Below are positions 3,481-62,522 of a stretch of DNA of 64,000 nucleotides, piece by piece. The notes under the pieces were generated by a model. That model saw nothing but the letters and a program-made list of their open reading frames with translations. It made no database searches and was not told where the DNA came from. The number at the start of each line of letters is the position of its first letter. Within the stretch, counting starts at the first letter, position 1. Position numbers and translations under genes: made by a program. The DNA is from Eledone cirrhosa (lineage: Eukaryota), in contig OZ024753.1 of assembly GCA_964016885.1 (NCBI GenBank), forward strand, positions 40,920,001-40,984,000, read 5' to 3'.

Positions 3481-3672
3481 TAACAAAAGAATGGTGGTAA
3501 GGAACCAGATTGACCATAACACACCAGAGTACTCAATACTTAGGGTAGTAGAGTGGGAAATAGGAAAAAGTATGACTCCGACGGCAGAGCTCAAGCCGTT
3601 TCGAAGGCTATTTAGTCCAGAAATAGCCGTTTAAACGGCTTGAGCTCTGCCGTCGGGGTCATACTTTTTCCT

Positions 3673-7120: not shown

Positions 7121-8462
7121 AATGAATAATAACAGGTAGACATCATAAAAAGGTAATTTATTCCCTCTCCCCCTCATTCTCTCTTTCTCTATCTCTCACT
7201 ATTTATAAATATGTATATTCATATCCTTCTCTCTCTCTCTCTCACTCGCTCACTCGCTCTTTCACTCGCTCTCTCACTCCCTCTCTCTCTCCCTCTCTCT
7301 CCCTCTCTCTCCCTCTCTCTCCCTCTCTCTCTCATGGTGTTACAGTGCCACAAAGTCACTCTGTCACGGAACAGGTTCTGTAATCACAATTTTTTCCCCA
7401 CTTCACACCAGACTAATTTACAGTCCTTTCTCCTTCGTCTTTCTCCTCTCTCTCTCCCCCTCTCTATCCCTCACTCTCCCTTTACCTCTCTCTCCTTCTC
7501 TGCCTCTCCCTCCCTCCTCCCCTCTCTCTCTCTCACACTCCGTGATTGAACGGCGATATGTAATCTTTGACAAGGTTAACACGTCACACCATCAAAATAA
7601 TACGTTTGTGATTGCATAGATGGTTTTCGTGATGGTGTTGGTGGTGGTGATGGTGGTGGTGATGGTGGTGGTGTTGGTGGTATTGGTGGTAGTGGTGTTG
7701 GTGATGGTATTGGTGGTGGTGGTGTTGGTGATGGTATTGGTGGTGGTGGTGTTCGTGATGGTTTTGGTGGCGGTGATGGTGGTGTTGGTGATGGTGTTGG
7801 TGGTATTGGTGGTGGTGTTGGTGGTATTGGTGGTGGTGTTGGTGGTATTGGTGGTAGTGGTGTTGGTGATGGTATTGGTGGTGTTGGTGTTGGTGATGGT
7901 ATTGGTGATGGTGGTGATGGTGGTGATGGTGGTGATGGTGGTGATGTTGGTGGTGGTGTTGGTGGTATTGGTGGTGGTGTTGGTGATGGTATTGGTGGTA
8001 GTGATGTTGATAATGGTATTGGTGGTGGTGGTGGTGGTGGTGGTGTTGGTGATGGTTTTGGTGGTAGTGATGTTGATGATGGTATTGGTGGTGGTGGTGG
8101 TGGTGTTGGTGATGGTTTTGGTGGTAGTGATGTTGATGATGGTATTGGTGGTGGTGGTGGTGGTGTTGGTGATGGTTTTGGTGGTAGTGATGTTGATGGT
8201 ATTGGTGGTGGTGGTGTTGGTGACTGTATTGGTGGTAGTGGTGTTGGTGGTGGTATCGTTGGTGGAGTTGGTGTTGGTGATGGTATTGGTGGTAGTGGTG
8301 TTGGTGATGGTATTGGTGATGGTGGTGTTGGTGATGGTATTGGTAATGGTGATGTTGGTGATGATATTTGTGGTGGTGATGATGGTATTGACGATGGTAT
8401 TGCTGGTGGTGGTGTTAGTGGTGTCCTTGGTAGTGAATGGCAGTAGTGGAAATGGTGGTGAT

Positions 8463-9820
8463 AATAGTAATGCTGGTGGTATGGTGGTAGAGGTTGTAGT
8501 AGTAGAGCTTTTTGAGGTAATAGTAATGCTGGTGGTATGGTGGTAGAGGTTGTAGTAGTAGAGCTTTTTGAGGTAATAGTAATGCTGGTGGTATGGTGGT
8601 AGAGGTTGTAGTAGTAGAGCTTTTTGAGGTAATAGTAATGCTGGTGGTATGGTGGTAGAGGTTGTAGTAGTAGAGCTTTTTGAGGTAATAGTAATGCTGG
8701 TGGTATGGTGGTAGAGGTTGTAGTAGTAGAGCTTTGTGAGGTAATAGTAATGCTGGTGGTATGGTGGTAGAGGTTGTAGTAGTAGAGCTTTTTGAGGTAA
8801 TAGTAATGCTGGTGGTATGGTGGTAGAGGTTGTAGTAGTAGAGCTTTTTGAGGTAATAGTAATGCTGGTGGTATGGTGGTAGAGGTTGTAGTAGTAGAGC
8901 TTTTTGAGGTAATAGTAATGCTGGTGGTATGGTGGTAGAGGTTGTAGTAGTAGAGCTTTTTGAGGTAATAGTAATGCTGGTGGTATGGTGGTAGAGGTTG
9001 TAGTAGTAGAGCTTTTTGAGGTAATAGTAATGCTGGTGGTATGGTGGTAGAGGTTGTAGTAGTAGAGCTTTTTGAGGTAATAGTAATGCTGGTGGTATGG
9101 TGGTAGAGGTTGTAGTAGTAGAGCTTTTTGAGGTAATAGTAATGCTGGTGGTATGGTGGTAAAGGTTGTAGTAGTAGAGCTTTTTGAGGTAATAGTAATG
9201 CTGGTGGTATGGAGGTAGAGGTTGTAGTAGTAGAGCTTTTTGAGGTAATAGTAATGCTGGTGGTATGGTGGTAAAGGTTGTAGTAGTAGAGCTTTTTGAG
9301 GTAATAGTAATGCTGGTGGTATGGTGGTAGAGGTTGTAGTAGTAGAGCTTTTTGAGGTAATAGTAATGCTGGTGGTATGGTGGTAGAGGTTGTAGTAGTA
9401 GAGCTTTTTGAGGTAATAGTAATGCTGGTGGTATGGTGGTAGAGGTTGTAGTAGTAGAGCTTTTTGAGGTAATAGTAATGCTGGTGGTATGGTGGTAGAG
9501 GTTGTAGTAGTAGAGCTTTTTGAGGTAATAGTAATGCTGGTGGTATGGTGGTAAAGGTTGTAGTAGTAGAGCTTTTTGAGGTAATAGTAATGCTGGTGGT
9601 ATGGAGGTAAAGGTTGTAGTAGTAGAGCTTTGTGAGGTAATAGTAATGCTGGTGGTATGGTGGTAAAGGTTGTAGTAGTAGAGCTTTGTGAGGTAATAGT
9701 AATGCTGGTGGTATGGTGGTAAAGGTTGTAGTAGTAGAGGTAATAGTAATTGAGGTGGTATGGAGGTAAAGGTTGTAGTAGTAGAGGTAATAGTAATTAA
9801 GGTGGTATGGAGGTAAAGGT
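8463..9820. repeat. 56-bp minisatellite, about 24 copies
   Basis: Unit AATAGTAATGCTGGTGGTATGGTGGTAGAGGTTGTAGTAGTAGAGCTTTTTGAGGT; GAGC recurs at 8505, 8561 etc. Confidence 0.95.
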
Positions 9821-9860
9821 GCTGTTCTTGGAGGTTGCCGTAATGGAAGTTGTGATGGCA

Positions 9861-10047
9861 ATAATTGTTTCTACTTTAGGCACAAGGCCAGCAAATACCC
9901 CCAGTGCATTACTGGTACTTTATTTTATCGACCTCCCGTAAGGATGAAAGACAAAGTTAACCTCGGCGGGATTTGAAGTCAGTCCGTAAAGTGACGTAAC
10001 TCTGTGCTGCAAAGTATGGCGTCCAACCCTCTACCGATACTGCCAAT
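9861..10047 (-). mobile_element. tRNA-derived SINE
   Basis: Minus strand reads TTGGCAGTATCGG (A box) ... GACTTCAAATCCC (degenerate B box) ... CTTTCATCC..GGTCGATAAAATAAAGTACCAG ... GGCCTTGTGCC. Confidence 0.85.
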
Positions 10048-13006: not shown

Positions 13007-13440
13007 TTCTGGTTCCCCGAGCCTAGTGGGTGAGGAAGGGCTATTTTGAAATATGAGAGCTTTATATGCTGTAAAGTGAGCTCTTTACTTGTTCCAAAGG
13101 CCTAGTGGGTGAAGAGGGGTTACTTTGAAACATGAGATCTTTATTCTACAAAGTGAGCTCTTTACTGGTTCCAAAGGCCTAGTGGGTGAAGAGGGGCTAC
13201 TTTTGAAATATGAGATCTTTATTCTACAAAGTGAGCTCTTTACTGGTTCCAAAGGCCTAGTGGGTGAAGAGGGGCTACTTTTGAAATATGAGATCTTTAC
13301 GCTGCAAAGTGAGTTCTTTTCTGGTTCCAAAGGCCTAGTGGGTGAGACCACATGGGATCTTGACCGAATGTGTCCAGCGGACTGAGCTCTTTTCTGCCTC
13401 CCAGGGTCTGTTGGTTGAGGAGGAGGTATTTTGAAACATG
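13007..13440. repeat. 78-bp tandem repeat, about 5.5 copies
   Basis: TTTACTGGTTCCAAAGGCCTAGTGGGTGAAGAGGGG at 13161 and 13239; outer copies diverged. Confidence 0.9.
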
Positions 13441-16171: not shown

Positions 16172-16544
16172 ACACACACACATGCATACACACACACACA
16201 CACACACACAAGCACACACGCACAACCTAAACAACATCCCATACAAGAAAATTGACGTCATCCTCCTGCTTCTTGTGAATAACAAAGTAAACATCGAACA
16301 ACTCTAGAAAGCCCTTTATAAAATTTAGATCTAAATTTGCCCCCAAAGAGAACAAAGCGGAACATTTTTCTTTGAGAGTTGCTTATATACTCTGAAGAAG
16401 GGGATTTAAGACCCGAAATATTAGGACGAAAGAAACAACGGCAACAACAACAAAAAACAGACAAGGATTACCAGGTTACTGATTTATTTGTTACCAACAA
16501 CTTACAGTTCATTTGGTATTGTTTAGCCTTATATCACTTTCCAC

Positions 16545-19914: not shown

Positions 19915-19950
19915 TTCTCTGATGAAGGACTAGCGTCCGAAACGTTAAGA
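19915..19950 (+). ncRNA. Minimal hammerhead ribozyme motif (short stem II family)
   Basis: CTGATGA-A-GGAC-TAGC-GTCC-GAAA-CGTT; AACGTT palindrome; homologue at 28903-28938 (minus). Confidence 0.65.
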
Positions 19951-27690: not shown

Positions 27691-28232
27691 GATTTAGGCA
27701 CAAATAGCAATTTTTTTTTGCGGGGGGGGGGGGTAAGCAAATCGATTAAATCGATCCCAGTATGTGATTGGTTCCTTTATTTTATCGACCCTTGTAAGGA
27801 TGAAAAGCAAAGCTAACCTCGACTGTATTTGAACTCAGAACGTAAAAGACATAGCTATATGCTGCAAAGCATATTGTCCGACACTCAACCGATGCTGCTA
27901 ATCTACCGCCATACTTGCATCCTAAATAATTGTTTCTACTTTAGGCACAAGGCCAGCAATTACCCAGTGCATTACTGGTACTTTATTTTATCGACCCAGT
28001 AAGGATGAAACTAAATAATGGGATCTGATTCAGGCACAAGGCCAGTAATGTTTGAGGGGATGAGAAAATCGATTAAATCGATCGCAGTGGGTGATTGGCT
28101 CCTTTATTTTATCGACCCCGTATGGATGAAAGGCAAACCCCAGCTGGATTTGAATTCAGGACGTTAAGGACAGTACTCTATGTCTGGAAGGATAACGTGC
28201 GAAGTCTACCTATTACTGCCAATCCACCGCAT
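27691..28232 (-). mobile_element. Cluster of three tRNA-SINE copies (27691-27911, 27927-28010 partial, 28030-28232)
   Basis: Repeated TTTATTTTATCGACCC..GGATGAAA core and ATTTGAACTC (B box, minus). Confidence 0.8.
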
Positions 28233-29681: not shown

Positions 29682-29783
29682 ATAATTGTTTCTACTTTAG
29701 GCACAAGGCCAGCATTTATCCCAGTACATTACTGGTACTTTATTTTATCGACCCCGTAAGAATGAAAGCCAAAGTTAACCTCG
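29682..29783 (-). mobile_element. tRNA-SINE, 5'-truncated
   Basis: Same core and tail as 9861-10047. Confidence 0.8.
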
Positions 29784-53489: not shown

Positions 53490-54680
53490 TGTTGTTGTTG
53501 ATGTTGATCGTCATGTAAACGATGGTGTTGGTGGTGAGGGTAGTGATGGTGGTAAGTGGCGTATTTTTTGGTGTTGCTAAATGTCTCTGATGGCGGTCAT
53601 TATAGAGATGATGGTGATGGTAGTGAAGGTAGTGTTGTTGTTCATGTTGATTGTCATGTAAGCGATGGCGGTGGTGACTGTGTTGGTGGTGAGGGTAGTG
53701 ATGGTGGTAAGTGGCGTATTTTTGGTGTTGCTAAATGTCTCTGATGGCGGTCATTATAGAGATGATGGTGATGGTAGTGAAGGTAGTGTTGTTGTTCATG
53801 TTGATTGTCATGTAAGCGATGGCGGTGGTGACTGTGTTGGTGGTGAGGGTAGTGATGGTGGTAAGTGGCGTATTTTTGGTGTTGCTAAATGTCTCTGATG
53901 GCGGTCATTATAGAGATGATGGTGATGGTAGTGAAGGTAGTGTTGTTGTTCATGTTGATTGTCATGTAAGCGATGGCGGTGGTGACTGTGTTGGTGGTAA
54001 GCGTAGTGATGGTGGTAAGTGGCGTATTTTTGGTGTTGTTAAATGTCTTTGGTGGCGGTTATTATAGAGATGATGGTGATGGTAGTGAAGGTGGTGTTGT
54101 TGTTCATGTTGATGGTCATGTAAGCGATGGTGATGGTGACTGTGTTGGTGGTGAGGGTAGTGATGGTGGTAACTGGCGTATTTTTGGTGTTGTTAAATGT
54201 CTTTGGTGGCGGTTATTATAGAGATGATGGTGATGGTAGTGAAGGTAGTAGTGTTGTGGTTCATGTTGATCGTCATGTAAGCGATGGTGGTGGTGACTGT
54301 GTTGGTGATGAGGGTAGTGATGGTGGTAACTAGCGTATTTTGGTGTTGTTAAATGTCTTTGGTGGCGGTTATTATAGTGATCATGGTGGTGGTAGTGAAG
54401 GTAGTGTTGTTGATTTTGTTGTTATTGTTGGGTGGTTTTGAGGGTAGTATTACTGTTGTTAATGGTGTTGATGGTAGTGTTGGCTGTTACTGTTGTTGAT
54501 GATGGTCGTCATGTAAGCGATGGTGGTGGTGAGTGTGTTGGCGGTGAGTGTAGTGATGATGGTACGTGGAGTATTTTTGGTGTTGTTAAATGTCTTTGAT
54601 GGCGGTCATTATAGTGATGATGGTGATGGTACTGAGGGTAATGTTGTTGTTGATTTTGTTGTTGTTATTGGTGGTGGTGA
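53490..54680. repeat. 154-bp minisatellite, about 7 copies
   Basis: GGTAAGTGGCG at 53706, 53860 and 54014; right-hand copies diverge. Confidence 0.92.
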
Positions 54681-59487: not shown

Positions 59488-60177
59488 ACATATGTGTATG
59501 TGTAAGAGAAAGAAAAAGAGTGACTATTCATTTTTACTCATATATATATGTGTGTGTGTGTGTGCATATGTGTGTGTTCATATGTGCGTGTGTGTATGTG
59601 TGAGAGACAGATAGTGAATGAAAGAGAGAGAGAGCGAGAGAGAGAGAGAGAGAGAGAGAGAGTGAGAGAGAGAGAGAGAGGGGGTGTGAGAGAGAGAACA
59701 GAAAATTCACATTTATAGATTTATATTCATTTTTTTATTCTCTATTATCAATTTATTATATATTTATTTTAGATTTTCTCTCACTCTATTTTAATATTAT
59801 TCCTAAGTAGGTTTATAATTTCTAAAAACACCTCTGGTCACTTCGAGGTTACAGTTACACAATTCACTAGTTTTTTTCCTGGCGTTAAGCCGCCCACCAC
59901 CACCACCACCACCTCCACCTTCTGATGTCCATTACTTCAAAAGACTCGCGTCACCCCCACCTCTACTTACTAATTGCAGCCTGTCTATATAAACAGTGTT
60001 AGTTACCTGAGAATATTGATTAATTTTGGATTATCTTTCAGCCAACTATTTAGCTACATACAGTTCTAGACCTGTAGAAGTCATTTCTATAATAAATCTG
60101 TTGTTTACACTCTACTAATGTATTGAGTACCTCACCTACTGTGGTTACCCCCGATTGAACCCGGGATTCATATCTCT

Positions 60178-60271
<94 letters not shown>

Positions 60272-60633
60272 TACATATATATATATTAAAAAAACATGAG
60301 AAGAAAGAAGAATACTGCGTGGTTGCACATGGGTTACATATGATAAAATTAGTCCTTCGTCAGTGATTTGCCAACCATCATTGATATTTCATCGCATTAA
60401 AAATCATATACCTCAGGTTGGTGCGAGCAATAACTAAAAAAAGCTATTGGGACAAGTAAATCGCGTAAAGCGAGGGGGACAAGTAAACAACATAGAAGGA
60501 AGAAAGCAACGCAAAGATGGGAATAAACAATATATATAAATGACGTATTTCCGTAGGAAAGGTAAAGGAAAAGAGAGTGCTCTATGTAGGCTACAGAGCT
60601 TTTTAGTTATGTAATAAACAACATAAGAGAATT

Positions 60634-60697
60634 ATTTCATTTACCAGTGGTTTCTTGAAGACAGATATTTATGTCTGTCTTCATTCATCAGAAAAAT
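60634..60697 (-). ncRNA. Hammerhead ribozyme motif (family E)
   Basis: Minus strand: CTGATGA-A-TGAAGACAGA-CATAAATA-TCTGTCTTCA-A-GAAA-CCACTGG-TA; perfect 10-bp stem II, stem III ACC/GGT; stem I weak. Confidence 0.65.
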
Positions 60698-60790
60698 ATG
60701 TTGTTTATTACATAACTATATATATATATATCTTATGTTGTTTATTACATAACTATATATATATATATCTTATGTTGTTTATTACATAAC

Positions 60791-60827
<37 letters not shown>

Positions 60828-60831
60828 GTAG

Positions 60832-61014
60832 GTCCCGGGTTGAGTCGGGGATAACCACAGTAAGTAAGGTACTCAATACATGGCAGAGTAAAATCTTTTT
60901 ATTTTATAGAAGGAGCTTCTACAGGACTAGTACTGTTTCATTCAGATGAAATCTTCCTGAAGATTTCATCTGAATGAAACAGTACTAGTCCTGTAGAAGC
61001 TCCTTCTATAAAAT
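60832..61014. mobile_element. Family B element with perfect 56-bp-arm palindrome (60901-61014)
   Basis: Arms 60901-60956 and 60959-61014, centre CT; CTGAAGA (60957)...GAAA (60976) hammerhead-like core starts at the axis. Confidence 0.8.
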
Positions 61015-61506: not shown

Positions 61507-61509
<3 letters not shown>

Positions 61510-61640
61510 TTAGCCGTCGAAACGGCTTGAGCTCAGCCGTCGGGGTCTTACTGGTTCCTATTACGCACTCTACTACCCTAAGTATTGAGTACTTTGGTGC
61601 GTTATGGTCCACCTGGTTCCTTACCACATTTCCTTCGTTA
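61507..61640 (+). mobile_element. Family A copy
   Basis: GAATTAGCCGTCGAAACGGC...CCTTCGTTA(TA)n. Confidence 0.75.
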
Positions 61641-61702
61641 TATATATATATAAAATAAAGTTAAATAAAAAGTCAAATGTTTAAAATTTACCTTCGTTTA
61701 CT

Positions 61703-61757
61703 ACTGCTATATATATTTCAGTAACAGCCATCTTTGGCTGTGACCTCTTCAGGCAGT
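61703..61757 (-). ncRNA. Type I minimal hammerhead ribozyme (family G, copy 1)
   Basis: Minus strand: ACTGC-CTGAAGA-GGTCACAGCCA-AAGA-TGGCTGTTACT-GAAA-TATATA-TA-GCAGT; perfect 5-bp stem I, 10/11-bp stem II. Confidence 0.85.
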
Positions 61758-61867
61758 CCGAATTAGTGTGGTATAGACAAGTACATATGTTGTTGAGGTG
61801 TATAATTTTGTCAATACTCTGATATGTCCAGTTCCTGGTTAGGTTGTTATTTCTCTGAGGAACTGGA

Positions 61868-61924
<57 letters not shown>

Positions 61925-61969
61925 AAGTTAAATAAAAAGTCAAATGTTTAAAATTTAGCTTCGTTTACT

Positions 61970-62024
61970 ACTGCTATATATATTTCAGTAACAGCCATCT
62001 TTGGCTGTGACCTCTTCAGGCAGT
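61970..62024 (-). ncRNA. Type I minimal hammerhead ribozyme (family G, copy 2)
   Basis: Identical to 61703-61757. Confidence 0.85.
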
Positions 62025-62134
62025 CCGAATTAGTGTGGTATAGACAAGTACATATGTTGTTGAGGTGTATAATTTTGTCAATACTCTGATATGTCCAGTT
62101 CCTGGTTAGGTTGTTATTTCTCTGAGGAACTGGA

Positions 62135-62194
<60 letters not shown>

Positions 62195-62365
62195 AAAGTT
62201 CTATTTAAATTGTTTGGATACAACAAGTAAATATTTTTATAACTGATATAAAGCACTCGACAAGTATTTGGAGTAGATATACGATATTAATAAATGGAAA
62301 CTATATTTATAAAACCATATTTATTTCATTATTTCAAAGCTTATTTGTAAAACTGTTATATATTG

Positions 62366-62430
62366 TATTTTGTCTGATGAAGGCATACCATAATTTAATT
62401 TGGTATCCCTGAAATATGTATAATGAAATA
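62366..62430 (+). ncRNA. Type I minimal hammerhead ribozyme (family H; element 62194-62471 with inverted left arm)
   Basis: TATTTTGT-CTGATGA-AGGCATACCA-loop10-TGGTATCCCT-GAAA-TATGTA-TA-ATGAAATA. Confidence 0.8.
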
Positions 62431-62469
62431 AATATGGTTTTATAAATATAGTTACCATTTATTAATATC

Positions 62470-62522
<53 letters not shown>

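Follow-up and report, generated by a model that had tools for sequence, protein, structure and literature searches.

Two hammerhead motifs that stand in tandem on the minus strand of a 64,000-nucleotide stretch of Eledone cirrhosa DNA (the whole stretch is what we call the window) are probably the trace of one insertion. In the reading that we favour, the locus is what a 5' truncation left of the 3' end of a high-copy repeat; the repeat is likely a Penelope-like element (PLE) that inserts at (TA)n, and its tail was set into TA once and probably doubled later at the DNA level by exchange between TA tracts. Most likely the pair is a PLE-type hammerhead tail, of which the window has many others, that has been doubled in place; such a pattern is known and ordinary.

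The window is AT-rich and laden with microsatellites. At 61639-62186 TRF, with its settings taken from Li et al. 2026, finds a single array (period 267, 2.1 copies, 99% match, 0 indels). The 220-bp non-microsatellite parts of the two units, 61651-61870 and 61918-62137, are one base apart, C at 61691 against G at 61958; at this pair unit A has the letter of the repeat family, and the change is private to unit B. The parts of the array are the following:

61918..62137, minus strand: unit A, the upstream copy, by its sequence the 3' end, truncated on the 5' side, of a hammerhead-bearing repeat with many copies, likely a PLE
61651..61870, minus strand: unit B, the downstream copy, whose sole difference from A by sequence comparison is at 61691
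61970..62024, minus strand: type I hammerhead A, with C3 at 62019, N17 at 61975 and an 8-nt palindromic helix III
61703..61757, minus strand: type I hammerhead B, with C3 at 61752 and N17 at 61708
62138..62191, no strand: TA tract of 54 bp on the 5' side of the element
61871..61919, no strand: TA tract of 49 bp between the units
61639..61652, no strand: TA tract of 14 bp on the 3' side of the element, common, tail to tail, with the neighbouring repeat
61869..61874, minus strand: 5' truncation point, CATATG, of which four letters match both the element and the TA tract
61708..61974, minus strand: 267-nt product of double cleavage, 28% GC, including a (UA)n tract, purely as predicted

An earlier note on this DNA had described two nearly identical minus-strand hammerhead units, and the TRF array, the comparison of the units and a stem-checked scan of the assembled sequence all bear this out. 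It had also put the two cut sites 267 nt apart; ours (N17 at 61975 and 61708) match its positions exactly, and from this geometry a transcript cut at both sites would be expected to release a 267-nt product.

Each unit carries, on the minus strand, a 5-bp stem I (ACUGC/GCAGU), the core CUGAAGA, GAAA and a cleavage site after AUA. The helix II arm is 26 nt long, with 9 pairs, one C-U mismatch and an outer G.U pair; helix III, AUAUAUAU, is a perfect 8-nt palindrome without a loop; and the cut site lies ~55 nt from the 3' TA tract. Positions are given in the usual hammerhead numbering, in which G12 has a recognised role. The motif is not there by chance, since the stem-checked scan for type I hammerheads finds 6 motifs in the 64-kb window against a mean of 0.02 (maximum 1) in 100 block shuffles. 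At the gathering score Rfam gives no match over the whole window, and the 15 weak matches that it gives in 61600-62500 are mostly driven by TA, with no hammerhead family among them. The unit's one long open frame, of 63 amino acids, has no Pfam match.

Hammerheads are common in this window, as judged from 17 matches to the hammerhead core (not all intact, many beside TA tracts, and one inverted pair at 2685/2761) and from the two neighbours of the tandem, both of them truncated, (TA)n-flanked repeats that have hammerhead parts:

61507..61638, plus strand: a 5'-truncated, (TA)n-flanked repeat of another family with the 3' half of a hammerhead-like motif, outside the tandem
62194..62473, no strand: a remnant that includes a hammerhead (C3 at 62374, plus strand) and an inverted piece, from a family found also at 16.7 and 48.8 kb, outside the tandem

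The family of the first neighbour has further copies near 3483, 6062, 19193, 19517, 21050, 25870, 42188 and 48360; judged by eye, it is abundant and has a fixed 3' end of GAAA, a long hairpin and UC, with an inverted 5' piece in 5 of the 9 printed copies. We tabulated ten hammerheads of the window, hand-picked from the 17 cores and one other, with C3 at 2685(-), 2761(+), 16760(-), 34699(+), 48830(+), 61228(+), 61752/62019(-) and 62374(+) among those located. In eight of these ten the fourth pair of helix II is a C-C or C-U mismatch, and in the same eight helix III is 8 nt long, palindromic or nearly so, and varied in sequence (AUAUAUAU, AUAUGUAU, AUGCGCAU, AUGAUCAU); the pyrimidine mismatch may serve PLE hammerheads with a long helix II as a conserved site of tertiary contact. 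Four further cores, at 16392(+), 19919(+), 27119(-) and 28934(-), have the short helix II of the classic minimal PLE type (an extra A after CUGANGA, G-C, CGAAA); those at 19919 and 28934 are related to each other, and all four failed the filter on helices I and III.

Other repeats of the window are described here in their own right. On the minus strand of 60598-60805 there is a hammerhead-like core at 60691, with a helix III, ACCA-C-UGGU, that resembles the one of Hydra-1_Obim; ahead of it stand three inverted copies of a 21-23-nt stretch of its own tail, spaced by TA with a period of 37. The span 60900-61010 folds back almost perfectly, in arms of ~55 bp around a truncated hammerhead core at 60957, and a related piece lies at 60060-60166. 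A ~190-bp abundant family (9860-10047, 27750-28230, 29682-29783, 30919-31102, 37614-37814 and 38210-38406) is presumably an octopus SINE-type repeat. Homogeneous minisatellites occur at 8462-9739 (period 56, 22.8 copies, 99%), 13021-13345 (period 78, 4.2 copies) and 53525-54412 (period 154, 5.7 copies). The 64-kb window holds no tRNA genes. Between TA tracts on the minus strand of 36626-37356 lies a broken remnant that resembles a reverse transcriptase (RT), a 91-aa part of which is 78-80% identical to two hypothetical proteins of Octopus vulgaris; neither of its two frames (36.6-37.4 kb) matches a Pfam family. We dropped the idea that it is a Naiad element, as the published Hydra-1_Obim protein (PMC8557442) fits it by eye.

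To see how the unit stands within its family, we turn to public sequencing runs, namely X1, X4, X5 and X14 out of 16 found, with X7-X10 (small share) and the rest left out. The target was unit B with short flanks (61605-61880) at 85% likeness, in which 61605-61665 was skipped. These runs are perhaps from another species or individual than the window, the best of them containing 0.67 of the window's words, and among the runs found to hold the window's words there was no RNA run. Copies of the family appear in 1878 contigs of X1, 23 of X5 and 2 of X4, and in 5997 of 12.5 million reads of X14, which is a restriction library, so that its reads give no copy number. The largest identity band is 90-95% in X1, X5 and X14.

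In all four runs the loose ends at 61874 lead into one common sequence that is not TA (23 contigs of X1, one each of X4 and X5, and 565 reads of X14), and the depth at the TA letters 61875-61880 is 4% of that in the previous bin in X1 (4,944/112,198) and 17% in X14 (186/1,122). From this shared continuation and the drop in depth, we conclude that a longer element has lost its 5' part to give the unit, and most family copies do extend beyond the unit's 5' end. A minority stop at the same point in TA repeats, and thus the short form recurs. The upstream continuation of the family, of which 30 letters are visible, was not found in the 64-kb window.

At the same place the family also folds back on itself: a joint of 61870 to 61874 on opposite strands occurs in 4 contigs of X1 and 11 reads of X14, and X5 has an inverted loose end. 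This fold-back copy is absent from the window's own copy of the unit. Each unit has, on the minus strand, a 9-bp hairpin right at its 5' end (61828-61867 and 62095-62134); lying beside this recurrent point of truncation and fold-back, the hairpin might stall reverse transcription there. Other joints near 61874 in X14 may be ligation products of the restriction library, and these and other ends are possibly library-made because they are located at AATT sites. For the same reasons (a DNA restriction library, AATT sites) we ruled out the X14 read ends at 61685, 61761 and 61764 as ends made by ribozyme cleavage.

Searches further afield gave matches that we attribute to chance. With a 17-letter motif, a scan of IMG/VR hit 19 loci, none of which extends into the hammerhead. 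One metagenome scan gave 0 matches, and a second gave three 20-letter matches, all inside bacterial genes and none aligning further to the unit, in frames that by eye are ribonucleotide reductase-like and ClpX-like.

Among the family variants listed (40 of 45 rows), the core, helix I and helix III of hammerhead B have none, that is 0 of 29 positions against 33 of 145 outside. Fisher's test gives p = 0.002 on these 40 rows, 0.07 if two of the remaining five fall inside and 0.63 if all five do, and many of the variants are linked subfamily markers, which bears on these p values. Such a variant-poor core, with its helices I and III, hints from sequence that the ribozyme has been retained by selection in the parent family. 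Position 11.1 is U or C in the family, either of which pairs with G10.1; U is the majority letter (57-66%), and G-C closes helix II in 34-43% of family depth. The outer G.U pair of the window's units is therefore not a defect specific to this locus, an idea that we ruled out on finding it to be the family's majority letter.

The parent element is likely a PLE, an identity that we take from its anatomy; a parent of this class would be expected to encode an RT and a GIY-YIG endonuclease. There is a type I hammerhead with a palindromic helix III near the 3' end; the family is high-copy and dispersed, with 5'-truncated members; TA tracts lie on both sides of the element, as for a (TA)n target, and no target-site duplication is discernible. 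The fold-back joints between 61870 and 61874 give the family an adjacent inverted 5'-truncated copy, which is a described hallmark of PLEs (PMC8557442). In octopus, Naiad and Hydra PLE families, including the hammerhead-bearing Hydra-1_Obim, prefer (TA)n (PMC8557442), and recently active Penelope-like families are described for O. vulgaris (PMC13282606). We rejected identity with Hydra-1_Obim itself: none of five unit motifs of 10-14 nt occurs in the searched text of the supplement to PMC8557442, in which line breaks can conceal a match, and helices I, II and III differ.

How, then, did one tail become two? Both units share four letters that are unlike the family majority, at 61701, 61723, 61827 and 61841. 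The window's letter at 61701 makes up at most 0.05% of X1 depth and 37 of 3046 X14 reads, and that at 61723 at most 0.11% and 85 of 3997 reads; the letter at 61827 is less rare (435 of 1585 X14 reads). Two independent insertions are unlikely because both units have these rare letters in common and only one private difference, and the proportion of four shared to one private suggests one insertion that was doubled later. As the runs are perhaps from another species, letters that look rare in them could instead be the sign of a subfamily that has multiplied in the genome of the window itself.

The history that we propose has four steps. First, the parent, presumably a PLE, which bore a type I hammerhead some 55 nt before its 3' end, spread to many loci, as the runs show. 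Second, its reverse transcriptase may have primed at a nicked (TA)n tract and stopped after ~220 nt at a 4-letter TA match, a mechanism borrowed from the PLE literature. Third, this single copy would have been doubled to give unit-(TA)n-unit, probably through misaligned exchange between TA tracts. Fourth, in a transcript that runs across both units, the hammerheads could pair via their palindromic helices III, with weak cutting predicted. For the third step there is a local precedent: at 60697-60805, 1 kb from the hammerhead pair, TRF reports a 37-bp x 2.9 tandem with TA spacing, and so TA-spaced doubling occurs nearby.

An unlikely alternative is that the tandem was made at insertion, when a PLE RT copied the 3' end of one RNA twice and met the same truncation hotspot both times, by a template jump or by re-priming on TA, much as partial tandems arise that form pseudo-LTRs. 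Partial tandems are the normal PLE product (PMC8557442, PMC4209133); the break point is recurrent in the family, as seen in the fold-back joints and the copies ending in TA; and the shared rare letters are explicable by one template RNA. The described partial tandems are, however, unequal in length, whereas here both copies end at the same base with 49 bp of TA between them, and with four differences in common to the units and a single private one, the doubling seems to have come after the insertion.

That the tandem is an artefact of assembly, in which two alleles of a single-unit locus with unlike TA lengths and one SNP were set one after the other, strikes us as distinctly unlikely. In its favour, the units are nearly identical (1 difference in 220), there are long TA tracts at every boundary, 13.7% of the window consists of TA tracts of at least 10 bases, and the read placement skipped 61605-61665, the tandem junction being known from the assembly only. 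On the other side, the doubling is confined to the unit while the flanks are not doubled, the three TA tracts are unequal (54, 49 and 14), and another TA-spaced tandem of other sequence lies 1 kb away, each of which is suggestive only.

Would such a pair of ribozymes cut? In ViennaRNA predictions for a transcript of both units, the palindromic helices III pair with each other with probability 1.0. The active double hammerhead nevertheless carries a predicted cost of 14.5 kcal/mol (16.2 by a stricter MFE constraint) because a competing inactive helix captures G12; with the family's majority letters the cost is 12.1, and in the C11.1 form, which uses the family's alternative letters, it is 3.5, all within an energy model that leaves out tertiary contacts of the core. 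U11.1 is the letter behind most of the predicted misfold. In many published Hydra hammerheads a U precedes GAA (PMC8557442), and with U11.1 being also the family majority, this letter need not be a defect, which weakens the argument from misfolding. The predicted 267-nt monomer folds better than its shuffles, with a z of -6.5 as a circle and -3.6 without the UA tract. PLE hammerheads that cleave as dimers are reportedly the subject of work by Lunse and colleagues from 2016. The earlier note had taken it as established that minimal hammerheads with a palindromic stem III cut efficiently as dimers, and this has to be narrowed: efficient dimer cleavage is documented for the canonical hammerheads of axolotl (PMC7229834), PLE-type minimal hammerheads have low activity as dimers and trimers (PMC4209133; review PMC6765202), and of nine predicted Xenopus retrozyme dimers one was cleaved in vitro and eight gave no product (bioRxiv 10.64898/2026.07.22.740005). 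With weak cutting predicted, we regard the locus as most likely passive, a remnant that does not yield circular RNA in abundance.

The earlier note had gone further and called the unit retrozyme-like. Animal non-LTR retrozymes measure 150-450 bp with GC below 50% (PMC7229834), and a non-coding unit of 267 nt with 28% GC agrees with them in size and composition. Li et al. 2026 define a retrozyme by two or more units in succession, every one of which has a complete type I hammerhead, and an MFE below -5 kcal/mol (bioRxiv 10.64898/2026.07.22.740005); here the period is 267 with 2.1 copies, two complete motifs and an MFE of -15.7, the motifs having been found by our own stem-checked scan in place of their rnabob descriptors. 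What is not supported is a unit of fixed length, as the unit is the truncated 3' end of a longer repeat. It was also said that the (UA)n tract would be complementary to its own target, which is true, but every TA repeat would show the same and the point does not count as evidence on its own. The hammerhead is, moreover, not of the canonical type: with 9 pairs and a mismatch in helix II and 5 bp in helix I it is PLE-type, whereas the canonical type I motifs of coral and axolotl retrozymes have a helix II of ~4 bp and contacts between loops 1 and 2 (PMC7229834, PMC4209133). This feature is not absolute, since the mussel retrozyme is also without most of the contact nucleotides (PMC7229834).

An active non-LTR retrozyme, in which the dimer is transcribed and cleaved by a domain swap, a host ligase closes the 267-nt monomer into a circle and a PLE RT copies it into TA tracts, with re-insertion primed on the internal (UA)n, is in our view improbable. 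The computational definition, size and GC all fit it, as do the predicted pairing of helices III between units at probability 1.0, the better-than-shuffled fold of the monomer even without its UA tract, the minority of family copies that end at the same point in TA, and the catalytic core kept in the family among the 40 of 45 variant rows listed. Set against these are only two units, a long PLE-type helix II unlike the canonical one of the characterised coral retrozymes, PLE-type dimers that are weak in vitro (with one of nine Xenopus dimers cleaved) and the predicted competing helix. The runs also lean against the unit itself being what is amplified: most copies are longer, a minority end in TA, and window-type letters are rare, two of them at ~0.1% or less of X1 depth, in runs that are perhaps from other species. 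More improbable still is a retrozyme caught at birth, in which microsatellite-driven doubling of a truncated PLE tail has yielded a working double hammerhead that makes a 267-nt circle with a (UA)n primer.

Taking the locus as a doubled PLE-type tail that is probably passive, we file it, on its anatomy, under an arrangement that Li et al. give as the origin of non-LTR retrozymes, which they derive from PLE ends by local amplification (bioRxiv 10.64898/2026.07.22.740005); it is a tidy example of the step they propose for animals. If the dimer were cut and circularised in vivo, the locus would offer a direct view of a retrozyme's origin, as well as a small natural construct with which to ask if an internal (UA)n can prime re-insertion. 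A retrozyme at birth, if true, would mean that TA-rich cephalopod genomes have a simple way of turning dead PLE tails into new mobile elements based on circular RNA. In other animals the kind is well documented. Our literature search, which took in few subscription journals, returned no paper on an octopus retrozyme; supplements of PMC7229834, PMC4209133, PMC13282606 and the bioRxiv preprint may name cephalopod cases.

Among known systems, the closest are the hammerheads at the 3' ends and in the pseudo-LTRs of metazoan PLEs (Cervera and De la Pena 2014, PMC4209133). As described there, these share with our units a short helix I, a long helix II and a palindromic helix III that needs a partner, and they occur in thousands of mostly truncated copies per genome, in close opposite-strand pairs and in head-to-tail tandems. 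The present motif differs from that description in an 8-nt palindromic helix III, which is not minimal, in having no unpaired base between 9 and 10.1, and in a helix II closed by G.U (G-C in 34-43% of family depth); the present locus differs in its two copies of equal length with a long TA spacer and no ORF seen. With PLEs of the Hydra clade, represented by Hydra-1_Obim of Octopus bimaculoides (Craig et al. 2021, PMC8557442), it has in common the (TA)n target, a hammerhead near the 3' end, a pyrimidine before GAA and a 4-bp helix III arm, and with Hydra-1_Obim in particular the CUGAAGAG core; 5'-truncated inverted copies are also described for this clade. The Hydra helices III in the published table of that paper have a loop of 1-3 nt, whereas the present unit has none.

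Animal non-LTR retrozymes (PMC7229834; Li, Clavereau and Pollet 2026) are likewise short, non-coding, AT-rich tandems with a type I hammerhead per copy, and the present locus resembles the two-copy stage of the amplification of PLE ends in Li et al. 2026. The retrozymes of coral, mussel and axolotl, as characterised in these sources, are multi-copy, with linear and circular RNA demonstrated and mostly canonical hammerheads. The present unit, known from DNA sequence, differs from them in being a truncation and, as far as seen, a lone dimer that carries a microsatellite within its period.
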